Of a stretch of 34,270 nucleotides of DNA, positions 1,300 to 28,618 are shown piece by piece. The notes beneath the pieces were generated by a model. It was not told the origin of the DNA. It ran no database searches and saw nothing but the letters and a program-made list of their open reading frames with translations. The stretch is from the NCBI GenBank assembly GCA_043826475.1, contig JBDRQG010000375.1, positions 1 through 34,270 of the forward strand. The letters run 5' to 3'. Positions within the stretch are counted from its first letter, which is position 1. Every line of letters starts with the position of its first letter. The position numbers and the translations under genes were made by a program. This DNA comes from a bacterium. GTDB taxonomy: Bacteria > Zixibacteria > MSB-5A5 > GN15 > FEB-12.

Positions 1300-2049
1300 A
1301 TGAAGCAGACTCATATAATTATAGCATTTTTCATGAACTTATTAATTACAATTTCGACGTGTTTAATAATACTTAGTTGTGAAAGTTCAATTACAAATTA
1401 TAACACTGATAATGACAATACAGGCTTTTCAATTTCGGAAAATAGCTTTAACTTTGGGTTCACCCCTCAATACTCTACAATATCACATAGATTTTGGATT
1501 TACCCCCCTGGTGAAGATTCTTTAGTAATCTATAAAATAACCCCAAGTTGCGGCTGTATAAAATACATACTTGAAAAAGATATTATTCAGGCTGGGGATA
1601 GCACTTTACTGGAAATAATCTTTGAGACGAAGACCTATAGAGGGAATATCAGCAAATGGGTAAAAGTTTTTTATGACCCTTATTCTTCTATAAGAATTGA
1701 TGTTCAATCTTATGTGTACCGTCCGCTTGACACAACCTTAGCACTATCAATTATTCCTTACAAATTAGATTTCTCACAATTTAGACAAAATATAGTTGAT
1801 AGGAACAGATTATTAATTCTTAATAATTCCGATAAAAATCAATATATGTCTATAATTGATTATCCAACAGAAATAGAATACCCGGATATCAGCGAAAGAA
1901 TTAAACCAAATGATTCCATTTATTATGAAATCATACTAAATGATATAGGGATTGGCGGCGAATTCGAGAAATCAATGACTATTCAATTATTTTCACTAGA
2001 AAATATTCGTTTCACTATACCTATAAAACGTACAATTCGCATACCCTGA
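1300..2049 (+). CDS. DUF1573 domain lipoprotein (Ig-like, CxC motif)
   Basis: Lipobox-like ILSC; FNFG...ITPSCGC motif; C-terminal RFTIPIKRTIR shared with the paralogues. Confidence 0.85.
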   Translation: MKQTHIIIAFFMNLLITISTCLIILSCESSITNYNTDNDNTGFSISENSFNFGFTPQYSTISHRFWIYPPGEDSLVIYKITPSCGCIKYILEKDIIQAGDSTLLEIIFETKTYRGNISKWVKVFYDPYSSIRIDVQSYVYRPLDTTLALSIIPYKLDFSQFRQNIVDRNRLLILNNSDKNQYMSIIDYPTEIEYPDISERIKPNDSIYYEIILNDIGIGGEFEKSMTIQLFSLENIRFTIPIKRTIRIP

Positions 2050-5088: not shown

Positions 5089-5781
5089 ATGAAAAGATTT
5101 ATAACTTTATTAATATTTACGCTGGTTATTTCTGTTAATATCAACGCAGAAGCAATTCTGGTTGCACCAGCTGATATTTTTGACTTTGGGGACATCCCCT
5201 CAGGATCAGTTCTATATAACGGATTCTGGGTAAAATCAATTGGAACTGACACAGTTATAATTGATGAAATCAAAACCGGCTGCTCCTGTGCTGTAACAAG
5301 TAAAAAAACCGACCGAATTCCCCCCGGAGACAGCTTATTGATTGATTTAGAGTGGGATGTTTCAAAAAACCGGAGTTCTATTTCCAGGTCAATACGAATA
5401 TTTTACAACGGTAAACCTGACCCAATAAGGTTATCACTAACGGGACGAATAAAGCAAACTTTTAATAATATTATACCAGTATTGATTGAACCTTTTCGTT
5501 TTGAATTTGGGCAGACAGCCCGTAAGGATATTGACAGCATACAATTTACTTTCACCAATACTTATCCCCTTGATTATGAAATAAAGGTAATTTCTACTAT
5601 ATCGGATCGATACACCATTGATTATCCTAAATCAATAAAAGCTAATGAATCAGCGAGTGGATATATAAAACTCAATGAAAAATACAAAGATATCCCCTGG
5701 CAGGCTTCAATAACTTTTTCAATAAACGATAAAGATAATACCAATATGACTATTCCGGTACGACGTAAATTTTATAAGTGA
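5089..5781 (+). CDS. DUF1573 domain secreted protein (CxC motif)
   Basis: Signal peptide; FDFGDI...IKTGCSCA motif; C-terminal MTIPVRRK. Confidence 0.85.
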   Translation: MKRFITLLIFTLVISVNINAEAILVAPADIFDFGDIPSGSVLYNGFWVKSIGTDTVIIDEIKTGCSCAVTSKKTDRIPPGDSLLIDLEWDVSKNRSSISRSIRIFYNGKPDPIRLSLTGRIKQTFNNIIPVLIEPFRFEFGQTARKDIDSIQFTFTNTYPLDYEIKVISTISDRYTIDYPKSIKANESASGYIKLNEKYKDIPWQASITFSINDKDNTNMTIPVRRKFYK

Positions 5782-5836
5782 AGAAGATAACAAATTATTA
5801 ACTGTAATATATATTTTGGAGGATCTAAGACAAATC

Positions 5837-6580
5837 ATGAAGATTAAAAATCAAATTTATTTAATTTTGATTTCAATTCTGGTATTTGCCAGTATGGCTA
5901 CCAGTGCCCCCCGCCTGACTATTGGCGAATCATCATTTGATTTCGGGTTTGTACCCCAGAATTCCAAAATCTCCCATGATTTTTGGCTGCTCTCAACCGG
6001 AGATGATGAACTGAAGATTTTGAAAGTAGTCCCTGGCTGAGGATGCACTCAAGCACCTTTGGATAAAAATGTGCTGCCTGTCGGTGACAGTGCCAAATTA
6101 GAAATCATATTTGATACTAAAACTTATAAATCAAAAGTATCCAAACGCCCTAAAATTCAGACAAATGAAGGGCCTCCGGATAAGATGGTAACCATTACCG
6201 CGACTATCACACCTCGTCCTGATTCCACCTATCCGGTGGTAATCACACCTTATAAAATTGACATGTCGCAATTCAGCGATAAGGTAATCGATGAAGCCGA
6301 ATTTACGATTAACAATGTTTCCGAACAAGTATTGGACGTTTCGATGATTGCCTATGCAAAAGATTATTTCAGTGTTGAACTTCCTGACAAGATTAAGCCG
6401 GGTGAGTCGGCCTCCGGAAAAATCAAAATAAATAAAGATTACTTGGCAAAATCGTTCGACAAATCTTTTACTCTGGAACTCAATGACCAGCAAACTTCAC
6501 GCTTTACCATCCCTGTTAAAAGGACTATTAGAGCTCCCGGCAACGAGGATCGTGTAAAGACCGTTAAGAGTGGTAATTAA
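5837..6580 (+). CDS. DUF1573 domain secreted protein with in-frame TGA at 6038-6040; probable selenoprotein (UGC motif), about 247 aa
   Basis: ORFs 5816..6040 and 6059..6580 share a frame. Read-through gives VVPG-U-GCTQAPLDK, matching ITPSCGC, KTGCSCA and TPLCDCT in the paralogues. ATG at 5837 follows GGAGGA; signal peptide present. A nonsense pseudogene is the alternative. Confidence 0.8.
6041..6093 (+). promoter_or_regulatory. Candidate bacterial SECIS element
   Basis: Directly 3' of the TGA: AGCAC-C-TTT-GGAT-AAA-AAT-GTGCT (6052-6075) with GG in the apical loop at +24/+25 counting the U of UGA as +1. Additional pairings GCACT/AGTGC and CTGTC-GGT-GACAG. Folded by eye only. Confidence 0.5.
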
Positions 6581-6597
6581 AATAATTGTCATAAAGT

Positions 6598-6629
6598 AAA
6601 AAAAGCCCTTATCATTAAGGGCTTTTTTT
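6598..6629. terminator. Bidirectional intrinsic terminator
   Basis: AAAAAAAGCCCTTA-TCAT-TAAGGGCTTTTTTT between convergent genes. Confidence 0.9.
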
Positions 6630-6670
6630 ATCATCAATTTTTAAAATTAAGAATCAGAGTTAACATCATC

Positions 6671-8110
6671 CTAATCAACAAAATCAGGGTTAATATCAAT
6701 CATGCCGGAGTTGATCACATCATCCCAGCTCCCATCATAGACTTCACCGTCTACATTAGAGTGAACCAATCTTCTAAATCCATTCTTATCCTCAAAAATA
6801 AATACCTTGCCCTCTTTGTAGCCGAAATACCACCACACTTCATAAGCATCCTGCCTCATGGGAACTTCGCGATTCTCAAGTTGATCCCATTGGCCGTATG
6901 ACATCAGTACTCTTCCCCTGTCACTATACCAACCGTCGGTTTTGTCTTCGTTTTCTGAAAAGTGCTCATTGGCAAATTTGTAATATGCTATCAGATCCCT
7001 GCGAGTGACAGGCTTTCCGAAGCGGTTTTTGGGCTTTTTATCCTTCCAGTACTGTATAAGAAAATTATTTTTCCCCTCGTCGGATAATCGATCCATAGCC
7101 TGCTTCTCCTGAACATCCATGATATAAGTCACCAGATTGATTTTACTTTCAAGACTAAGCTGGTCATATGGATCTTTGGATTGAAATTTTTCAATAGCCA
7201 AAGCTACTTCTTCTGTCGATAAAATCCGAAACATGCTCAAACTCGTATCGGTCTTATTATTGGTTAAATCGGTAGCAATAATCTGCAAGTGATACAAATC
7301 GGATGGCCAGTTATTAATCTCAAAAGATTCCGCAAGAGCGGCACTTCCACCCGGTTTATCAAATTTTCTCACTCCAAGCGTCTTATACAAAGAATCATTA
7401 TTTAAAATATTATATGATACTTGAATTTGGGAGGGATTATCAGAATCATAATCAAGATTGTATAATTCGTAGTAAAGATATACAACGGTATCTTTATCAT
7501 TGAACATAGAGACCGGGTTAGGAATAATATAGAAATTATTTCGAACCAAGCGCATATTTACCGTTTCCGTATCAACAACAGGTTTGACATTAAAGGCTAT
7601 GATCGGCCCGCCGATCGAAATGTTATTTTTCTGAGGGGGTTTAACAACTATTTTGTCGATAAAAGCATCGCCGCTTCGCTTGCTAACGACATCAATTACA
7701 TGAAGCCTCGCCGAATACACACCGGGTTTAACAAGGAGAGCTAATTTATTAAACAGTTTTATTCCCGTCTGAAGCGCTTCAGTCCTGTTATTGGTTCTAA
7801 CGGAAAAGTAGGTAGTGATTGAATCGACAGCGGTTCCAAGAGTATTAAAAAGGTCAATCTGGGCAAAAATGCGTGAGTATAAGAATTGTTCTTCCCCTTC
7901 AGGATGGAAAAACTCAAATTCATGCCTGTTAAGAGAAAACGGGAATTCTACCAGTGAAACTGAATCAAACTGAGGATCGGCCAGGACTACTGCTCCGGAA
8001 TATACTGTAAGAGAATTATCTAATTCATCCTGGGCATTTACTCCCGAGACAATTAACAAAAAAAGAATTAGGCAGATTTGATATGATTTACTAATCGCAC
8101 TTCGTTTCAT
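6671..8110 (-). CDS. GWxTD domain-containing secreted protein
   Basis: Signal peptide; C-terminal ANEHFS...GWYSDRGRVLMSYG...YEVWWY...FIFED. Confidence 0.85.
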   Translation of the reverse strand: MKRSAISKSYQICLILFLLIVSGVNAQDELDNSLTVYSGAVVLADPQFDSVSLVEFPFSLNRHEFEFFHPEGEEQFLYSRIFAQIDLFNTLGTAVDSITTYFSVRTNNRTEALQTGIKLFNKLALLVKPGVYSARLHVIDVVSKRSGDAFIDKIVVKPPQKNNISIGGPIIAFNVKPVVDTETVNMRLVRNNFYIIPNPVSMFNDKDTVVYLYYELYNLDYDSDNPSQIQVSYNILNNDSLYKTLGVRKFDKPGGSAALAESFEINNWPSDLYHLQIIATDLTNNKTDTSLSMFRILSTEEVALAIEKFQSKDPYDQLSLESKINLVTYIMDVQEKQAMDRLSDEGKNNFLIQYWKDKKPKNRFGKPVTRRDLIAYYKFANEHFSENEDKTDGWYSDRGRVLMSYGQWDQLENREVPMRQDAYEVWWYFGYKEGKVFIFEDKNGFRRLVHSNVDGEVYDGSWDDVINSGMIDINPDFVD

Positions 8111-9565: not shown

Positions 9566-10816
9566 TTATTCGTACCGCAGAGCTTCAATTGGATTAAGTC
9601 GGGCGGCTTTCATGGCTGGTGCAATCCCGGATATCAGACCGACCGAAACAGCCACAACAAACCCGATTACAATCCAGAAAATTGAAACGGTCATGGGAAA
9701 ACCGGCTATTTTATTGATTATTAACCCTACACCAATGCCTAAAATGATGCCAATTATTCCCCCTGAGCAGGTAAGAGTAACCGCTTCAGTCAGAAATTGC
9801 AGCAGAATATTTGAACGCTTGGCGCCGAGTGCTTTGCGGACTCCAATCTCACGAGTCCGTTCTGTCACTGAAACCAGCATGATATTCATCACCCCGATTC
9901 CCCCCACCATTAAGCCAACCGAAGTTATAATTATCATAGCCAGATAAATGTATTTGGTGATATTATTAACCATTTCTTTAAGATTTTCCTGAGTAGAAAT
10001 GGCAAAGTTGTTATTTTTGTCAAAGGGGACGCTGCGGTAAATCCTAAGAGTATTGATAATCTCTTCTTCCGCCAGCTCCATCACTTGAGGGCTGGCACCT
10101 TTAACGATCAAAAACAGTTCTTCTTCCCAGGGATGTATTTTTTCAAAAGTGGATAAGGGAATGGTAACCTGATTGTTTTCGTTGTCATCATCGAAAGTAG
10201 ATTTTTTCTCTTCAAACACCCCAACCACTGTGAATCGATCGCCGTTGACTCTGATGACCTCATCAATCGGGCTTTTCCCTTCAAAAAGAGTTTCAGCCAG
10301 TTTATGACCGACGACACAGACATAGGCGCTGGAAAATTGATCCATATCAGTAATGAATCTGCCTGATTCTAAATTCAAATTATTTACTTTGATAAAATCG
10401 GGCCAGGTCCCCATCAGATAAGGATTGTTCCCTTTTTTATTTTTATACTTAACTTCATTTCCTCCTGGGGCAAAATAATAATTTTGTGGAGAAACACCAT
10501 CCACACTTGGACAGTTTTTGTTGATGGCCTCTGCTTCGCCAACAGTTATCGGGGGGCGGTTACGGTCCTCTTCTGAGAGCTTATCACGGTCAACATCAAA
10601 AGCATAACGGGTGATATAAAAACTGTTAGATCCCCAGGCATCAATCTCATCATTGGCCGCTTTATCCAGTCCATTTATAACCGAGGCCATAGCGATGACC
10701 GAAGCAACACCTATTAATACTCCCAAGATCGTAAGAAAGGATCGCATCTTATTAGTTCTGATAGAAGAAAGAGCCATTAAGACAGCATCTAGAATTTCAA
10801 TAGGCGTTAAAATCAT
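9566..10816 (-). CDS. ABC transporter permease, MacB/FtsX family
   Basis: NKMRSFLTILGVLIG, VGGIGVMNIMLVSVTERTREIGVRKALGA, PA.KAARLNPIEALRYE. Confidence 0.93.
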   Translation of the reverse strand: MILTPIEILDAVLMALSSIRTNKMRSFLTILGVLIGVASVIAMASVINGLDKAANDEIDAWGSNSFYITRYAFDVDRDKLSEEDRNRPPITVGEAEAINKNCPSVDGVSPQNYYFAPGGNEVKYKNKKGNNPYLMGTWPDFIKVNNLNLESGRFITDMDQFSSAYVCVVGHKLAETLFEGKSPIDEVIRVNGDRFTVVGVFEEKKSTFDDDNENNQVTIPLSTFEKIHPWEEELFLIVKGASPQVMELAEEEIINTLRIYRSVPFDKNNNFAISTQENLKEMVNNITKYIYLAMIIITSVGLMVGGIGVMNIMLVSVTERTREIGVRKALGAKRSNILLQFLTEAVTLTCSGGIIGIILGIGVGLIINKIAGFPMTVSIFWIVIGFVVAVSVGLISGIAPAMKAARLNPIEALRYE

Positions 10817-10825
10817 AATACCAAC

Positions 10826-12046
10826 TCATTCATAACTTAGAGCTTTAATGGGATCCAACCGAGCCGCTTTCATAGCCGGGTATATCCCGAAAATCAGGCC
10901 AGTCCCGGTAGAAATTGACATACCGGCTATAATGGCGACTACAGAAGGAGATATTTCCATATCAAGCATCCCCACTAATGACTTGGCGATTATAAAACCC
11001 AGCACAATGCCAATAATTCCCCCAATCATTGTAGTCAATAATGCTTCAAAAAGAAATTGTACCATAATATGTGATTTTTTTGCGCCAACCGATTTCCTTA
11101 TTCCGATTTCACGCGTTCGTTCGGTTACAGATACCATCATAATATTCATAACCACAATACCACCGACTACCAATGATATTGAGGAGATCCCTACCAATCC
11201 GTAACGGAACATCTTTGTAAACGAATTGACCATATCCAAAACGTTATCAGCAGTAATAATGGCAAAATCATCCGGCTTATTATATGGGACATGCCGCTGG
11301 GAACGGAGAATCAATCGGACATTATCCATTGTTTCATCAAGGACTTCTACAGAATAGGCTTTAATCATCAAATTAAATTGATCCCCCGGTTCACCGAATT
11401 GTTTTATATATGATGTAAATGGAATTAGCACAAAATTGTCATGATTATTTCCAAAAACCGATCCGATTTTTTTTGCAACCCCTACTACGGTATATTTTTT
11501 ACCTCCGATTCTGATATCCTTGCCTAACGGATCTACACCTGGAAATAGTTCTTCGCGAACAACATCTCCAATAAATACCACTTGTTTTCGATGAAGTGAC
11601 TCTTCAAACGAATAAAATCTTCCCTGTCCAACTTCAACATCAGCGATCTCAATAAAATTAGGATCTACTCCGCCAATCGTTACTCGCCTTAATGTCTGAG
11701 AACCCCGCTTAATATCAGCCCGGTTATAAGCACGAGGACAGACTTTTTCACAATTTTCACATCCAGCCTCAATCATATCAACAGATTCAAGACTGATAGC
11801 TTTTCTTTTGACCGCCTCTAAGTATTCTTCTTCAGATGTTATCATACCCCATTTAGTAACAATAAATGTTGATGGTCCCATTCTGTCTATCTGCGACTCG
11901 ATGGCTCCCATCATCCCCTCCAGAGCCGAGATAATCGTCATTACCGAAGTAACTCCGATAATAACCCCCAGCAGAGTCAGGGTAGTACGAAGTTTATTTG
12001 CCCAAAGGGCTCCAATAGCTATACTAAGCAGAGAAAAAGAAATCAT
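10826..12046 (-). CDS. ABC transporter permease, MacB/FtsX family
   Basis: NKLRTTLTLLGVIIG, VGGIVVMNIMMVSVTERTREIGIRKSVGA, PAMKAARLDPIKALSYE. Confidence 0.93.
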   Translation of the reverse strand: MISFSLLSIAIGALWANKLRTTLTLLGVIIGVTSVMTIISALEGMMGAIESQIDRMGPSTFIVTKWGMITSEEEYLEAVKRKAISLESVDMIEAGCENCEKVCPRAYNRADIKRGSQTLRRVTIGGVDPNFIEIADVEVGQGRFYSFEESLHRKQVVFIGDVVREELFPGVDPLGKDIRIGGKKYTVVGVAKKIGSVFGNNHDNFVLIPFTSYIKQFGEPGDQFNLMIKAYSVEVLDETMDNVRLILRSQRHVPYNKPDDFAIITADNVLDMVNSFTKMFRYGLVGISSISLVVGGIVVMNIMMVSVTERTREIGIRKSVGAKKSHIMVQFLFEALLTTMIGGIIGIVLGFIIAKSLVGMLDMEISPSVVAIIAGMSISTGTGLIFGIYPAMKAARLDPIKALSYE

Positions 12047-12048
12047 AA

Positions 12049-12753
12049 TTAAAAAATCTTTCGATCTTCTTCGCGAACTAATACATCACTGTCAATCTTA
12101 CCATCCAGGATCGACAGGACTCTCCGAGCCCGGTTGGCAATATCCTGCTCGTGAGTTACCACAATAATAGTATTCCCCTGTCGGTGGAGATTATCAAAAA
12201 GACGCATGATCTCGACTGATGTTTTGGAATCCAAATTACCTGTTGGTTCATCAGCCAAAATGAGTGATGGATTATTGACTAATGCTCTGGCTATCGCAAC
12301 TCTTTGACGCTGGCCTCCGGAAAGTTCACTCGGTTTGTGCATCATCCGATCCTGAAGTTCGACTTTAGTCAAAGCTTCTATAGCCATTTTACGCCGCTGA
12401 TCAGAAGGAGATCCATTATATATAAGAGGCAATTCCACATTATGCAGAGAGGTTGCTCTCGGCAAAAGATTAAATGTCTGGAAAACGAATCCAATCTCCC
12501 GGTTGCGGATATTTGCTAATTCATCATCATTCATGCTGCTGACCAGGCGACTGTTAAGGTGATATTCGCCCTGAGTGGGAGTATCCAGACAACCAATCAG
12601 GTTCATCAGAGTAGACTTCCCAGACCCGGACGGCCCCATAATCGCAACATATTCACCTTTCTCAATAGTGATAGAGGCTCCACGCAGAGCATGAACTTCC
12701 TCAGCCCCCATTTTATATGTCTTCCATAAATTTTTTGTTTCAATAAGTGGCAC
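12049..12753 (-). CDS. ABC transporter ATP-binding protein (MacB/LolD family)
   Basis: Walker [10 protein letters not shown], signature LSGGQRQR, Walker [12 protein letters not shown]. Confidence 0.95.
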
Positions 12754-12755
12754 TG

Positions 12756-14066
12756 CTATTCACTCTCATCTTTCTTTTTGATAATTTCAACTTCCTCGTC
12801 ATCTTTGATGGATCTGAGAACCTTGTACGGCCCCGATACAACCGAATCATCTTTCTTGAGTCCGGTAAGAACTTCAATATATTTCTGATCGGCAATGCCG
12901 GTTTCGATTAGTTCAAAAATTGCTTTACCTTCTCGAATGACATAGACTCCTTTGACATCTTTTCTCTCAACTTCATCTTCAGATTTAGTTTTAAGGGAAT
13001 CTTTATTATCATTCACAGCAGCTTGCAATCCATCTGATTCCGGTTGTTCGCTTTTAACGGTATCATCTGTTTTACTTCTCGCCTGCATTAATGAATCCAA
13101 ATCAAGCGAACGCATTACGACGGCACTATAAGGAATTGCTAAAGCATCTTTAATTTCATTTGAAGTAATATCCACTGTGGCAGACATACCGGGGCGAATT
13201 TTCTCATTTTTGTCTATGAAAATTACTTTAACTTTAAAATTTGTGCTTTGGTCAGAACTGCTGGTATAAATAGCCGTATTGCCAACCTCGACCACTTCCC
13301 CCATAAAGGTAGTATCCGGGAAAGCATCAATTTCAATCTTAGCCTCCTGCCCCAATTCCACCTTGGTAACTTCGGTTTCGTCAACTTCAACTTCGACTTC
13401 AAAAACATCAAGGTTAGAGACAGTCATCAGAGTTTTTCCCTGCGAATAAACAGTCTGAGCTGCGGCAATCTCCCCTTCTTCACAGTCAAGAAAGGTAATA
13501 ATCCCGGGCATAGGAGCAACCACTTTGGCTTTACTGAGATAATCGAGTGCTTTGTCATATCTCGCTTCAGATTGCTGAGCCTGAGCTTTGGTTGCTTCGT
13601 AAGCTGATTTGGCATTCAGATAAGCGTATTTGGAATTTTTAAATTCTGTCTCAGAAGTAAGTTTATTTTCATATAGCTTTTCCTGTCTATGAAATTCTTC
13701 CTCGGTTTGCTCCAGACTCGATTTAGCTCCTTCAAGACGGGCTGTAATTTCATTAACGGAATATTTAGCCTGATCGAGATCAGACCGAAGCTGGATCGTA
13801 TCAAGAATTAAGAGCTGATCCCCTTTATTTACATACTGCCCCTCTTTAACATACAGCTTTACAATCTCGCCGTTAATTTCCGAAGTGATATCAACCTTCG
13901 TTTGAGGCTGGATGCGTCCTGATGCAGATACGGTTTCAATTATATCTCTGGTTTGAGCCACCTCAGCATTTACTTTAGTAGCATTACTGCTCTTTATATT
14001 CAGGTTTGCAATAACAATAACTGCTACGACTATTACTATTCCTGATATTATCAACCACTTTTTCAT
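12756..14066 (-). CDS. Periplasmic adaptor / membrane fusion protein (MacA/HlyD family)
   Basis: N-terminal membrane anchor, [13 protein letters not shown], coiled-coil hairpin, APMPGII, RPGMSA. Confidence 0.92.
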
Positions 14067-14102
14067 AATAATTCCTTAACTACAAAACCCTCATTCATAT
14101 TT

Positions 14103-15524
14103 TTAAATTTTCCCCATTGCATTTTCAAGATTGGAGATAGCCAGATTCAAATCAAAATCAGCTTGAATCAGTGAGACCTGAGCCTGCTTTAATGAGACCT
14201 GGGCATCAAGAAGATCAAGAATGGTGGCGGCGCCAAGGTTGTATTTTTCCTGGGTAATTTTAAGATCTTCGTCGGCAGCATCCACATTCTCTTGTGAAAC
14301 TTTTTGTTTTTCCTTCAAACGTTCAATATCCAGATATTTTGACTTAATACTTTGACTGGTCCAATTCCGCATATCGGCGTACTCAGCTCTGGCTGTATTA
14401 AAATTAACTTTGGCGCTGGTCAGATTGTATTCCCGAGCAAAGCCATCAAAAATATTCCAATTAGCCTGGAGTCCAAAAGTCGTACTGCGGCTGGAAAAAT
14501 TAAAAGTTGCCGTATCTCCCTGGGTTCCGTCTGAAAATGTCATGGATCCGTACCCTGAAAGAGTCGGCAAATATTTTGCCCAGCGTGAACGTACCGAATG
14601 GCGATACAAGTCTACGCTTTTCTCTGATGATAACAACCCGGGATTATGATCCAGACCATAAGCCATAGCTTCCTGAAGAGTACCAGAAAAATCGCGCATG
14701 GAATAATCCATAGAAAATTCAATATCACTATTTGGATCAAGCCCAACAGTATATGCCAATGATGCTTTTCCATTGTTGACGTCGTTTTGTGCTGACAACA
14801 AAGAAAGGCGGTCATTTCCCATTTGAACTTTCTGTTTTAAGACATCTGATTTCGAAGCCGATCCAAGATCATATTTTGATTGAATGAGTTTTAATTGTTC
14901 GGTGCTTCGCTCAACCGCCTGATCCTGCACTTCGACATTTTTTACAGCCGCAAGGTAGTAATAATATGAGACTTTTACCGCATAGATAAGGTCCTGCTCT
15001 GAGCCAATTACATCCAGTTTCGCCTTAGCAAGATTTGCTTTAGACCCGGCATAATCAAAAAAGTTGGACAGGTCAAACAGTGATATATTGGCTGATAGGT
15101 TCAAACTTTTATTGCTTCGATCCTGATCAGGAAGAGGCATTTCATTAATCGTTGAAGTAACTGAATCTACTTGAGGGCTAGCTCCTAAAATATAAAAAGA
15201 GCTGTCACCGGCAGGATCATAGACTTCTACACTGTCAACCACATAAGATAAAAAAGTTTGCCTATCTTCAACATCCGATTTTATATCCCTTGATCTCGTT
15301 TCAGAATAACTATAAGAAGCATCCACCCTGGGTAAAAATGCTCCCAATGCTGCTCTTTTATTGGCGCCGGCAAGTTGTTCTCTTCCTTTGGCGGCAATTA
15401 CCGAAGCTCTGTTTTTTAGAGCCAGTTCGATACAATCATCAAGCGTTAAAAGTTCAGCAGCTTTTGTGGACTGAACCATTATCATTCCCAATAGAAACAA
15501 CGAAATACTAACAAACGACCTCAT
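14103..15524 (-). CDS. TolC family outer membrane protein
   Basis: Signal peptide, LTLDDCIELALKN, FLPRV/YLPTL repeats, KYNLGAATILDLLDAQ. ATG at 15524 with GGAGA RBS. Confidence 0.92.
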   Translation of the reverse strand: MRSFVSISLFLLGMIMVQSTKAAELLTLDDCIELALKNRASVIAAKGREQLAGANKRAALGAFLPRVDASYSYSETRSRDIKSDVEDRQTFLSYVVDSVEVYDPAGDSSFYILGASPQVDSVTSTINEMPLPDQDRSNKSLNLSANISLFDLSNFFDYAGSKANLAKAKLDVIGSEQDLIYAVKVSYYYYLAAVKNVEVQDQAVERSTEQLKLIQSKYDLGSASKSDVLKQKVQMGNDRLSLLSAQNDVNNGKASLAYTVGLDPNSDIEFSMDYSMRDFSGTLQEAMAYGLDHNPGLLSSEKSVDLYRHSVRSRWAKYLPTLSGYGSMTFSDGTQGDTATFNFSSRSTTFGLQANWNIFDGFAREYNLTSAKVNFNTARAEYADMRNWTSQSIKSKYLDIERLKEKQKVSQENVDAADEDLKITQEKYNLGAATILDLLDAQVSLKQAQVSLIQADFDLNLAISNLENAMGKI

Positions 15525-15541
15525 AATCAAAATTCTCCAAT

Positions 15542-16436: not shown

Positions 16437-18452
16437 CTATTTAAACAATGCTGCGCCAACGACAAGTGAGACAATTGCCATCAATTTAATCAGAATATTC
16501 ATAGCTGGACCGGAAGTATCCTTGAACGGATCACCAACGGTATCGCCGACCACAGCGGCTTTGTGGGCAGGAGAGCCCTTCCCGCCATGAGCACCTGCTT
16601 CAATAAGTTTTTTGGCGTTATCCCAGGCACCACCGGCATTGGCCATCATAAGAGCCATCATCACACCAGACATAGTCGCTCCGGCCAGGAAACCACCAAG
16701 AGCTTCTGCCCCATTTTCGCCAAAAACCAGACCTACAATAATTGGAGCTAAAATTGCGGTGAGTCCGGGTACAACCATTTGTTGTAAGGCTCCGGTAGTC
16801 GCAATATCAACACATTTTTTAGTATCCGGTTTGGCTGTTCCTTCCATCAATCCCTTGATTTCACGGAATTGACGGCGAACTTCCTCAACCATTTTGGAAG
16901 CAGCTTTACCGACCGCAGTCATAGTTAAAGCAGCAATAAAAAATGGCAGTACCCCACCGAGGAAAAATCCGATGACAACATGCACCTGCAGAACATTAAT
17001 AACCTCTAAACCCACTGTTGCAGCATATGCTGAAAAGAGAGCTAAGGCCGTCAAAGCGGCAGATCCGATAGCGAATCCTTTACCGATAGCAGCGGTTGTA
17101 TTGCCCAGTGAATCCAATTTGTCGGTAATAGCTCTGACTTTCGGTCCGAGACCTGACATTTCAGAAATACCACCGGCATTATCAGCGATTGGACCATAAG
17201 CATCGACTGACATTGTGACACCGATAGTACCTAACATACCAACACCGGCAATACCGATACCATAAAGACCAGCAAAACTGTAACCGGTATAAATAGCGGC
17301 ACAAATTACAATTACCGGCAGAAGACATGATTCCATACCAACCGCCAGACCATTAATAATATTGGTTGCAGCACCAGTCTCTGAAGATTTTGCAATCCTT
17401 CTGACCGGACCGGCCGCAGTATAATATTCAGTTAATAAGCCGAGCATTATTCCAGCAACATTACCACCAATAATTGCCCAGAAAACATTATGATCAATTT
17501 TAAGGTGATCAATAATAAACCAAGCAGCAACAAGCATAAGTACCGCTCCGACATAGGTGACCAGTCGAAGTGTTGCAGCAGGGTTCATTTTTGAAAACAA
17601 TCTAACAGAAAGAACTCCTAACATTGATGCCAATGCACCAAAAGCAACAATCAATAAAGGCAGCTGCATATAAACTTCGCGATTATTAGCAATTTCCATC
17701 GAAATAGATCCGGCTACACCGGTAACAGTAGCAGCGATTGCAATTGTAGCGATAATCGAACCGACATAAGATTCAAAAAGATCAGCTCCCATACCGGCTG
17801 TATCACCGACATTATCACCGACATTATCAGCTATAACAGCAGGGTTACGCGGGTCGTCTTCAGGGATACCGGCTTCTACCTTACCAACCAGATCGGCTCC
17901 CACATCGGCAGCTTTGGTATAAATACCTCCACCAACACGGGCAAAGAGGGCAATTGATGAAGCACCCATGGCAAATCCATTAATGATTGATGCTTGGGCA
18001 GGATTTCCATAAAAATAAAATGCAATACCGACACCAATCAAACCAAGTGATGCTACCGACATACCCATAACGGCACCACCCGAGAAAGCAATTGATAATG
18101 CTTCCGGCTGACCGAAATCTTTAGCCGCGGCACAGGTACGAACATTGGCTCGGGTAGCCGCTTTCATACCGATAAAACCGGCTAACATAGAGCAGGCTGC
18201 TCCACCAAGGAAGGCAAAAGCAGTATTGCTGGGCTCGACTTTCCAATAAAGAAGACCAAATACAACGATAATAAAGATTACGAGAATGGAATATTCTCTT
18301 TTGAGGAATACCATGGCACCATCATGGATTACCTCAGAGATCTCTTTCATCAGTTCGGTTCCTGTAGGCTTGCTTCTAATCCAGAAAAACAGACCCAGAG
18401 CAAAAATAAGCCCAATGACACCAATTAACGCGGATAACAGACCTGTATCCAT
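16437..18452 (-). CDS. hppA: Membrane-bound K+-dependent pyrophosphatase, probably Na+-translocating
   Basis: [72 protein letters not shown] at 18452 with GGGGAG. Confidence 0.95.
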
Positions 18453-18539
18453 AGACAAATTCTCCCCGTTTGAGTTTCTATGTTGAGTTTAAGTTTTATA
18501 TTCTTTTTCACAAAAAAACACCCTTTCAAATCAGGCAGG

Positions 18540-27922: not shown

Positions 27923-28618
27923 ATGCATTTTCTACTCACAATTATCTCTACAGCTTTAATATTTCTTAATGGAGCTATTAATAAAGGGAGTAAATCACCA
28001 GAACTGACAATTGAAGAACAGATGTTTGATTTCGGTCATGTGGGCATTGAATATGATGTACAACATCAATATATATTTGAAAACCGAACCTCAGATACTA
28101 TCCGAATTTTAAAAACTACTCCCTTATGCGATTGTACTTCGGCATATGCTCTGGATTCGATCGTTGCCCCGGGAGATACTACCTTTATCAATATAAATTT
28201 TAGTACTAAAGATCAGTATGGCCCCACAAATAAAGAAATTGTTGTTATCACCGACAATAAACAGCTCGATTCTCTGCACTATTACTACCTCGCTATTATT
28301 GGACAATGGTTTGACGGAATACGGTCTGATCCTTCCGCTTTACTTTTCCTGCCTAAAAAGGGCCCACAAACGGTTAAAATTCCCAACTTCAATTTTGATA
28401 AAATCTCTATCTCAAGTTTTATCCAATATAGAGATTTTTTCACAATTAAACAGACTGTCAGCGAAGCTAAAAAGGGTGAGTCTTTAACTTTTGAGATCGC
28501 TCCCAGGAATGATTTAAAACCTGGGAATTATCGCTCAAATGTAACTTTACATATTGATAAAGGTGAAGACGCTGAAGAGACGATCCTGACCATACCGGTG
28601 AAAATAGTCGTATATTGA
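27923..28618 (+). CDS. DUF1573 domain protein (CxC motif)
   Basis: FDFGHV...TTPLCDCT; C-terminal LTIPVK; GGAGG RBS; 18 nt after the cysteine synthase stop. Confidence 0.85.
   Translation: MHFLLTIISTALIFLNGAINKGSKSPELTIEEQMFDFGHVGIEYDVQHQYIFENRTSDTIRILKTTPLCDCTSAYALDSIVAPGDTTFININFSTKDQYGPTNKEIVVITDNKQLDSLHYYYLAIIGQWFDGIRSDPSALLFLPKKGPQTVKIPNFNFDKISISSFIQYRDFFTIKQTVSEAKKGESLTFEIAPRNDLKPGNYRSNVTLHIDKGEDAEETILTIPVKIVVY

Follow-up and report, generated by a model that had tools for sequence, protein, structure and literature searches.

A UGA-interrupted gene for an exported DUF1573 protein, very probably a selenoprotein, is widely kept in the candidate phylum Zixibacteria

The stretch of DNA analysed here, called the window throughout, is the whole of positions 1 to 34,270 (34,270 nucleotides, forward strand) of contig JBDRQG010000375.1, assembly GCA_043826475.1, from a bacterium of the candidate phylum Zixibacteria. 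Its plus strand carries, at positions 5837-6580, a gene for a DUF1573 protein that is interrupted by an in-frame TGA codon, and this codon very probably specifies selenocysteine (Sec). The features of the gene are the following.

5837-6580, plus strand: predicted selenoprotein gene of 247 codons, with Sec as codon 68 and the stop codon TAA at 6578-6580.
5837-5905, plus strand: putative Sec-type signal peptide MKIKNQIYLILISILVFASMATS, with cleavage before APRL, recognised by inspection of the translation.
5918-6208, plus strand: N-terminal DUF1573 / HYDIN-VesB-like immunoglobulin (Ig) domain with the U-G-C motif (PF07610, E 2e-23; PF22544, E 1.1e-19).
6038-6040, plus strand: predicted UGA selenocysteine codon, in the column of the first Cys of the CxC motif of the family.
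6053-6074, plus strand: helix 1, a 22-nucleotide hairpin with 8 positions per arm and the 6-nucleotide loop GGAUAA, starting 12 nucleotides after the UGA.
6076-6093, plus strand: helix 2, GC-CUGUC-GGU-GACAG-U-GC, with the GGU triloop at 6083-6085, 42 nucleotides after the UGA.
6248-6517, plus strand: second, degenerate DUF1573/HYDIN-like Ig domain without CxC (PF22544, 25.4 bits; PF07610, 22.9 bits).

The open reading frame (ORF) 5816-6040 closes with the TGA at 6038-6040, and the ORF 6059-6580, in the same frame, starts six sense codons further on (GGA TGC ACT CAA GCA CCT, coding for G C T Q A P). Translation through the TGA gives a product of 247 amino acids from the ATG at 5837, or of 254 amino acids from an alternative TTG at 5816 (protein P0001). 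In the protein alignment the homologues start with a Met aligned with the ATG at 5837, and by inspection their aligned hydrophobic N-termini end in A-x-A / APRL. The 247-amino-acid read-through protein with the string VVPG-U-GCT, proposed in a preliminary description made from the DNA alone, was borne out by the ORF translations, the peptide around the Sec residue being KILKVVPG-U-GCTQAPLDK. The four pairs of peptides quoted in that description as shared with the 249-amino-acid paralogue at 1300-2049 were likewise all found in the translations, and the two proteins are collinear, with 36% identity. PF07610 (DUF1573) matches residues 35-131 of P0001 with 82.7 bits (cut-off 26.1), in a segment that spans the TGA. 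The C-terminal domain was scored alone on window positions 6221-6577 (residues 10-99), and both of its Pfam scores are just below the cut-offs. The preliminary description had placed the TGA at the first Cys of the motifs SCGC, GCSC and LCDC; this was upheld by alignment for SCGC (gene at 1300) and GCSC (gene at 5089), whereas for LCDC (gene at 27923) the correspondence is one of motif position only. In the alignments the column of this first Cys is invariantly Cys across the Cys forms. The part of the protein after the TGA shows no decay, as had been claimed, and its identity to the genes called in close relatives is 79-95%.

The region 5837-6580 very probably constitutes a single functional gene, which encodes an exported DUF1573 selenoprotein of two domains with a U-G-C centre where the family has C-x-C; its UGA would be recoded by SelA, SelB, SelD and tRNA-Sec, and the insertion of selenium at UGA 6038-6040 is what we infer from the sequence data. 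The selenoprotein reading of the preliminary description is supported by the presence of the Sec machinery in the genome, by the retention of the TGA in orthologues and by hairpins 3' of the TGA that are specific to the Sec forms.

Of 271 relatives detected by protein search, 120 were listed, and 11 of these were proteins of 169-177 amino acids that cover the part after the TGA only; they are 61-95% identical to it and represent the same split gene call repeated in other assemblies. Full-length Cys forms among the matches listed were 44-64% identical to the read-through protein. The gene has therefore been split in two by gene callers across many public assemblies and mis-annotated as its C-terminal fragment. 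In a six-frame search, a match was present in 100 of the 101 genomes of the same family, most best matches holding exactly one in-frame TGA, and the identical codon was TGA in all 30 orthologous loci fetched, within the peptide PG-U-GCT[KQ]APL. The degenerate DNA pattern for P-G-TGA-G-C-T-x-A-P was found in 230 of the phylum's 285 genomes, among them 164 of the 198 of high quality, and in 102 of 130 genera; the reversed pattern, used as a control, was absent from every genome row. Conservation to this extent far exceeds chance expectation. The orthologues thus have TGA at this codon instead of TGC or TGT. Read correctly, the gene would be among the most widely kept selenoproteins of the whole candidate phylum.

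Two side observations concern these relatives. Family f10 (G199-G201) and several genomes of family f1 contain two or three copies of the motif, and more than one DUF1573 paralogue appears to carry Sec there; the copies mostly retain the same helix 2 string. In one public homologue, P0004 (249 amino acids, 64% identical), the entry has W in place of Sec (VVPGWGCT), possibly a TGA translated by the annotator under another genetic code.

A search of the genome for the Sec machinery, to which the preliminary description had pointed, found selA (494.4 bits) and selD (386.8 bits, itself with an in-frame TGA) by genome profile search, a tRNA-Sec with the anticodon TCA (64 bits), and the N-terminal part of selB (model positions 1-261, 272.6 bits) at a contig end. 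All four exceed the curated cut-offs, the selB match being partial. The selD gene was present in all of the 61 sampled genomes of the phylum, and that of the same genome (contig C246:5342-6265, locus L001) is a selenoprotein gene with the motif SCAG-U-AS. Elsewhere in the phylum, 13 of the selD loci fetched (L122-L150) have their match within a long open frame of 713-796 amino acids that lacks a TGA, which suggests that these are fused Cys-type forms.

The TGA-bearing selD genes provide a view of the selenocysteine insertion sequence (SECIS) used in this lineage. L001 was scanned together with the 15 TGA-bearing short forms (L136-L150) among 30 newly fetched loci, 2 of the 16 loci scanned giving no match to the regular expression; these loci had been found by protein family, and the consensus is hence independent of the scan for the GGU motif described below. 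The other 14 loci share a covarying stem (CCAAA/UUUGG, CCGGC/GCUGG, CCAAC/GUUGG) closed by the loop GGU (9 loci), GUU (4) or AGUUG (1), and the G(G/U)U starts 20 nucleotides after the UGA, or 21 nucleotides in the AGUUG locus.

The RNA downstream of the UGA of the DUF1573 gene was examined in an alignment of 66 nucleotides from the TGA, comprising 30 loci of the family and then 53 loci with family f14 added. Helix 1 corresponds to columns 16-23 paired with 30-37. Its sequence is variable, and 81.5% of the cells are paired in the 52 distinct sequences, with three compensatory pairs: 18-35 (UA 28, AU 12, GU 3, GC 2), 21-32 (UA 21, GC 17) and 22-31 (UA 13, CG 10, UG 4). The covariation score of 0.159 was reached by none of 500 shuffled alignments (0.095 ± 0.007), and slid controls gave at most 0.121. 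In the window itself, 7 of the 8 pairs are formed (-4.4 kcal/mol). The loop sequences of helix 1 vary among the loci (GGAUAA, UGAAAA, CGAAAA, GCUAAA, UCAAAA and others).

Helix 2 corresponds to columns 39-45 paired with 49-55, with its core at 6078-6090 and a folding energy of -6.3 kcal/mol alone; helices 1 and 2 together give -11.9 kcal/mol. Apart from one GGC loop (L023), all 30 loci have the core CUGUC-GGU-GACAG unchanged, including the third, synonymous bases of its Ala, Val and Asp codons and, in 29 of the 30 loci, that of its Gly codon. The string CTGTCGG[TC]GACAG follows the TGA in 198 of the 285 genomes (control 0), with a span of 53 nucleotides in every listed match checked, the pattern having allowed 50-56. 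Identity at synonymous codons, profiled along the whole gene, has a baseline of 0.41 and rises steeply only over helix 2 (codons +12 to +17), where it reaches 0.77-0.93. There is a smaller rise around the UGA, and the helix 1 region stays at baseline (0.38-0.44), as is expected of a structure held by covariation. RNAalifold, applied to the 30 sequences, returned only helix 2 and a small invariant 5' pairing. In family f17 the TGA motif is present in 14 of 14 genomes and the helix 2 string in 0 of 14; there, a central helix of greater length (columns 14-26 paired with 33-45, with compensatory changes in five pairs) is followed by the invariant hairpin UCCAC-GGUC-GUGGA.

The Cys forms of the family served as controls. 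On average, the 20 Cys forms can form 4.05 of the 8 pairs of helix 1 and 3.35 of the 7 pairs of helix 2, against 6.33 and 6.57 in the Sec forms. The Gly codon is GGT in 29 of 30 Sec forms but in 3 of 20 Cys forms, and 49 of 68 Sec forms, but 1 of 20 Cys forms, have a perfect hairpin with the GGU loop. Nineteen Sec forms lack it: L023 has a GGC loop, L088 has an intact stem with a GGA loop, and in 17 loci of f14 the stem contains a C.A mismatch (CUGCC... GACAG), the loop of these 17 being GGU in 15 cases and GGA in 2. The lone exception among the Cys forms, L053 (G047:C3:399208-399927, genus g47), has TGC followed by both hairpins intact, as expected after a recent replacement of Sec by Cys; it is apparently such a replacement, with a fossil SECIS. 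In genus g47 the TGA motif is absent from 2 of the 5 genomes.

Other explanations of the TGA fare poorly beside these data. Reading of the UGA without selenium, either by a deviant code in which TGA means Trp or Gly or by near-cognate read-through, would agree with the W recorded in P0004, although this W could be the gene caller's choice of code. It is highly improbable: TGA is an ordinary stop codon in the window, where it ends 7 of the 25 ORFs of at least 150 amino acids, including the gene directly upstream, the genome holds tRNA-Sec(UCA) with selA, selB and selD, the UGA aligns with an invariant Cys, and an exchange of Sec for Cys is seen in L053. Still less credible is the production of two proteins, a secreted peptide of 67 amino acids and a protein of 173 amino acids from the TTG at 6059. 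Gene callers yield just such a split, and the 11 C-terminal fragments mentioned above are on record. However, the split would cut a single DUF1573 domain at its conserved motif and leave the 173-amino-acid fragment without a signal peptide, the starts of the called fragments differ among relatives (V, M or L at different positions), and the full-length Cys forms are collinear with the read-through protein. A lone in-frame stop in one metagenome-assembled genome might be a nonsense mutation in a pseudogene, or an assembly or sequencing error for TGC or TGT, yet with the same TGA in 30 of 30 independent loci, the motif in 230 genomes, an undecayed 3' half and Sec-specific hairpins behind the codon, this can practically be dismissed. 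The conservation of the TGA together with the Sec machinery thus sets aside mutation, sequencing error and a deviant code alike.

As to which of the two hairpins is bound by SelB, helix 2 is rather probably the binding site and helix 1 a self-closing spacer. While the UGA is being decoded, the approximately 50 nucleotides 3' of it would fold into two adjacent hairpins; helix 1 would act as a spacer whose ends meet, so that the GGU at 42 nucleotides would effectively lie at 20 nucleotides (42 - 22 = 20), and helix 2 would display its GGU triloop for SelB. Helix 2 is favoured because the selD SECIS has its G(G/U)U loop at 20 nucleotides, because subtraction of the 22-nucleotide helix 1 brings the GGU to the same distance, and because f17 has an invariant hairpin with a GGUC loop. 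Both the selD SECIS and helix 2 have a short G+C-rich stem closed by an apical G(G/U)U triloop; they differ in that the selD loop lies at 20 nucleotides on a freely covarying stem, whereas that of the DUF1573 gene lies at 42 nucleotides on a stem that is invariant in 198 of the 285 genomes.

The bacterial SECIS (bSECIS) model given in a 2026 review, as far as its text was available, has a loop of 3-9 nucleotides with a G within its first two positions, an upper stem of 4-16 bp, a distance of 16-37 nucleotides from the UGA to the apical loop and a minimum free energy of -7.5 kcal/mol or lower; in the Escherichia coli fdhF gene, according to the available sources, an upper stem-loop of 17 nucleotides lies 11 nucleotides from the UGA, with G23 and U24 conserved. 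Both helices have loops and stems within these ranges (helix 1, 6-nucleotide loop and 8 positions per arm; helix 2, 3-nucleotide loop and 5-7 bp), but the loop of helix 1, at 20 nucleotides, lies inside the spacing range and that of helix 2, at 42 nucleotides, outside it. As in the bSECIS model and fdhF, so far as these are described there, a hairpin in the coding region just after the UGA opens its small apical loop with G followed by G or U; here, in contrast, the GGU is found at 42 nucleotides, and a separate covarying hairpin of 22 nucleotides occupies the canonical position.

Several observations weigh against helix 2 as the SelB-binding hairpin, and some of them against the recognition of a SECIS at this locus as a whole. 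The C-terminal match to selB is weak (positions 440-575, 29.7 bits) and lies on another contig (C280), and the SECIS-binding part of SelB was not securely found in the genome. An Rfam scan of positions 5800-6300 at a lax threshold gave chance-level matches only and no SECIS family, folding of single sequences is modestly better than that of shuffled ones (z -1.15 to -1.9), and neither hairpin alone satisfies the published bSECIS model with its energy limit of -7.5 kcal/mol. In f14, helix 2 mostly contains a C.A mismatch (GCC in 17 of 23 loci), and the third base of the helix 2 loop is not U in 4 of the 52 distinct sequences. As an alternative, the codons immediately 3' of the UGA can pair with the 3' half of helix 2, 86.1% of the cells being paired without compensation. 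Finally, the loop of helix 1 lies at the canonical 20 nucleotides and, by a count made by eye, 27 of 30 loci have G as its first or second base.

It is accordingly conceivable, though rather unlikely, that helix 1 is the true SelB-binding SECIS, perhaps standing on a lower stem formed by columns 5-12 and 46-54 as in E. coli fdhF; the invariance of helix 2 would then serve a ribosome pause, mRNA stability or the lower stem. The spacing of 20 nucleotides, the 6-nucleotide loop and the 8-bp stem of helix 1 fit the published bSECIS ranges, helix 1 covaries, and the central helix of f17 (14-26 with 33-45) resembles a single classical hairpin. The long-range pairing 5-12/46-54, paired in 86.1% as given above, moreover tolerates the U44C change of f14, since A50 is bulged in that form. 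Against this, the loop sequence of helix 1 is not conserved, whereas the selD loop of the lineage is strictly G(G/U)U and E. coli, according to the available sources, requires G23 and U24, and f17 retains a separate hairpin with a GGUC loop. Columns 42 and 45, synonymous positions of the 5' arm of helix 2 that do not vary, are left unexplained by the long-range stem, in which one variable pair is formed in 19 and the other in 31 of the 52 sequences, so that both are frequently broken. The ribosome covers about 12 nucleotides downstream of the A site, and with the UGA in the A site this stem must melt. As the main structure it was therefore rated lower, on account of the lack of compensation, the often broken variable pairs and the unexplained columns 42 and 45; it is possible that it represents a conformer present before decoding. 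A ribosome-triggered SECIS switch, in which the GGU hairpin would form once the ribosome unwinds the long-range stem as the UGA reaches the A site, is speculative.

Returning to helix 2 as the site bound by SelB, we tentatively suggest that the recoding signal may represent a new class of bacterial SECIS, in which a SelB-binding GGU at 42 nucleotides is brought into register by a covarying 22-nucleotide spacer hairpin. The distance from the UGA to the loop bound by SelB is usually regarded as almost constant. A GGU loop kept at 42 nucleotides behind a covarying hairpin throughout a phylum offers an experimental handle on how the distance between UGA and loop is measured, and SECIS finders that use a window of 16-37 nucleotides could assign the wrong hairpin in such cases.

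A genome-wide scan for TGA followed by a GGU-triloop hairpin gave 10 candidates, of which selD and two genes on contig C234 were judged credible and one on C118 doubtful; the scan is conditioned on the motif and thus provides no independent evidence. The two C234 genes (L108:1-3017, minus strand) are adjacent paralogues coding for exported proteins of about 456-465 amino acids, with the TGA within W-U-P-x-C-P and with PKD and dockerin-like domains after this motif. Each TGA is followed, 18 nucleotides on, by a GGU-triloop hairpin, and the two stems (AGCGUG/CACGCU and GGCAUG/CAUGCC) differ by compensatory changes. They are likely to be further exported selenoproteins.

The family of the 5837-6580 product is not new as such. 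DUF1573 (pfam07610) corresponds to OS_HP2, a predicted selenoprotein since the work of Zhang and Gladyshev in 2007 and 2008. According to the available text of these reports, the Olavius symbiont study (2007) described 2 sequences of OS_HP2 from deltaproteobacterial symbionts of the worm, and the Global Ocean Sampling study (2008) listed OS_HP2 pfam07610, with the motif UxC, as 2 Sec and 354 Cys sequences from ocean samples; reviews of 2022 and 2026 tabulate a DUF1573 domain-containing protein with the motif UGC. The gene was thus hidden, as the preliminary description put it, in the sense of being missed by gene callers, but not as a family, which has been on record as OS_HP2 since 2007-2008; it is a divergent member of a selenoprotein family already in print. 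In the available text of the sources on selenoprotein families, SECIS elements and Zixibacteria (PMC9312934, PMC13188914, PMC1976440, PMC2398784, PMC8318568, PMC8659212), the search of which left subscription journals and supplements largely outside, no account of this gene in Zixibacteria was found, nor any mention of conservation throughout the phylum, of routine mis-annotation or of a two-hairpin SECIS with a distant GGU. The near-universality in the phylum, the systematic mis-annotation and the GGU loop at 42 nucleotides may therefore be new.

The product shares with OS_HP2, as described there, the Pfam domain, the position of Sec and the UxC/UGC motif, its U-G-C having Sec at the first position of the motif tabulated in the literature, and in both cases Cys homologues generally far outnumber Sec forms. 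The original reports, in the parts available, contain few sequences, whereas here the motif is found in 230 of the 285 genomes of one phylum, with fixed synteny. The product also differs from OS_HP2 in that it has two domains, about 247 amino acids and, by inspection, a signal peptide, and in that it stays below the cut-off of the OS_HP2 model NF041425. By hmmscan the read-through protein scores 81.2 bits with this model (curated cut-off 100), and in a six-frame search of the genome the locus scores 55.5 bits, none of the 10 matches in the genome reaching the cut-off; the Cys-form relatives likewise remain below 100 bits. The protein is therefore regarded as a relative within the same Pfam family and not as a curated OS_HP2 member.

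Another family, OS_HP5 (NF041383), was considered and rejected. It is named VPGUxxT thioredoxin-like in the table of the 2026 review, as far as available, and the string V-P-G-U-x-x-T also occurs at window positions 6029-6049. NF041383 gave no match with the read-through protein at E <= 0.01, nor with three Cys-form homologues at E <= 10, at which setting the HMMER filters drop most matches above about 0.1. The shared string is regarded as coincidence or as convergence around Sec.

The paralogues and neighbours of the gene in the window are the following.

1300-2049, plus strand: paralogue of 249 amino acids, SCGC, Cys form.
5089-5781, plus strand: upstream tandem paralogue of 230 amino acids, GCSC, Cys form, 30% identical, with the stop codon TGA at 5779-5781.
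6596-6631, plus strand: hairpin resembling an intrinsic terminator (16-pair stem and T tail), common to the 5837-6580 gene and the convergent GWxTD gene.
6671-8110, minus strand: convergent GWxTD-domain gene (PF20094).
27923-28618, plus strand: paralogue of 231 amino acids, LCDC, Cys form (PF07610, 59.4 bits).

All three paralogues have two domains and Cys. The domain model gave 10 matches in the genome, of which only that in the 5837-6580 gene contains a TGA. The gene order is fixed within the family: in 29 of 29 loci a DUF1573 paralogue immediately precedes the gene on its own strand and a convergent GWxTD homologue follows it on the other, and in 20 of the 29 a gene for a flavin adenine dinucleotide (FAD)-linked oxidase is found further upstream. 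The Sec forms of f14 and f17 are 27-41% identical to the 5837-6580 product and lie in other gene contexts.

The conserved polar residues near the motif include His54 (P0001 numbering, at least 90% conserved) and G-D-S. A sequence search of the PDB with the protein and with a 26-sequence profile gave 0 matches at E <= 1. The persistence of Sec as the leading residue of the CxC, with an adjacent paralogue that invariably has Cys, argues for a reactive centre rather than a structural disulfide. There is about an even chance that the motif is a selenol/thiol redox centre, located in the periplasm or outside the cell, in which U-G-C forms a selenylsulfide, and the Cys paralogue, always adjacent, may be involved in this function. 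Redox motifs of the C-G-C or CXC type include the Cys-Gly-Cys shuttle on the tail of Erv2p, CXC peptides that act as mimics of protein disulfide isomerase, and the GCUG selenylsulfide of thioredoxin reductase. Like these, U-G-C would bring together two chalcogen residues one apart, able to form a strained and reactive (seleno)disulfide ring; they, however, are located on flexible tails or in thioredoxin or Erv folds, whereas U-G-C is predicted here within an Ig-like beta-sandwich of an exported protein.

Use of U-G-C as a site for soft metals (Cu(I), Hg, Cd and the like) instead of a redox centre is a more doubtful proposal. The Ig-like protein Cox11 binds Cu(I) via a CFCF motif. The conserved His54 and the Asp and Ser of GDS accompany the CxC, and many of the predicted selenoproteins in the available review tables are metal proteins (MerP, MerT, P-type ATPase, CobW-like). 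On the other hand, the neighbours (the DUF1573 paralogue, GWxTD genes, the FAD-linked oxidase and a C1 peptidase) are not metal-handling, and the upstream paralogue lacks the conserved His. By analogy, an exported redox centre appears somewhat likelier than a soft-metal site. No functional study of the DUF1573 domain was found in the available text of the literature searched, and Sec at the CxC could be a starting point for elucidating the function of the family.

Some further genes of the window were noted. The minus strand carries, at 9566-15530, a MacB-type ATP-binding cassette (ABC) efflux cluster composed of two MacB/FtsX permeases, an ABC ATPase, an HlyD-type adaptor and a TolC-like outer-membrane protein, followed by a membrane H+-pyrophosphatase at 16437-18458. 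Pfam gave no match for the ORF 408-1289 on the plus strand. This ORF and the ORF 2-400, on the same strand, share a C-terminal segment ...NYPNPFN..T.I.F..., which resembles a type IX secretion sorting domain.

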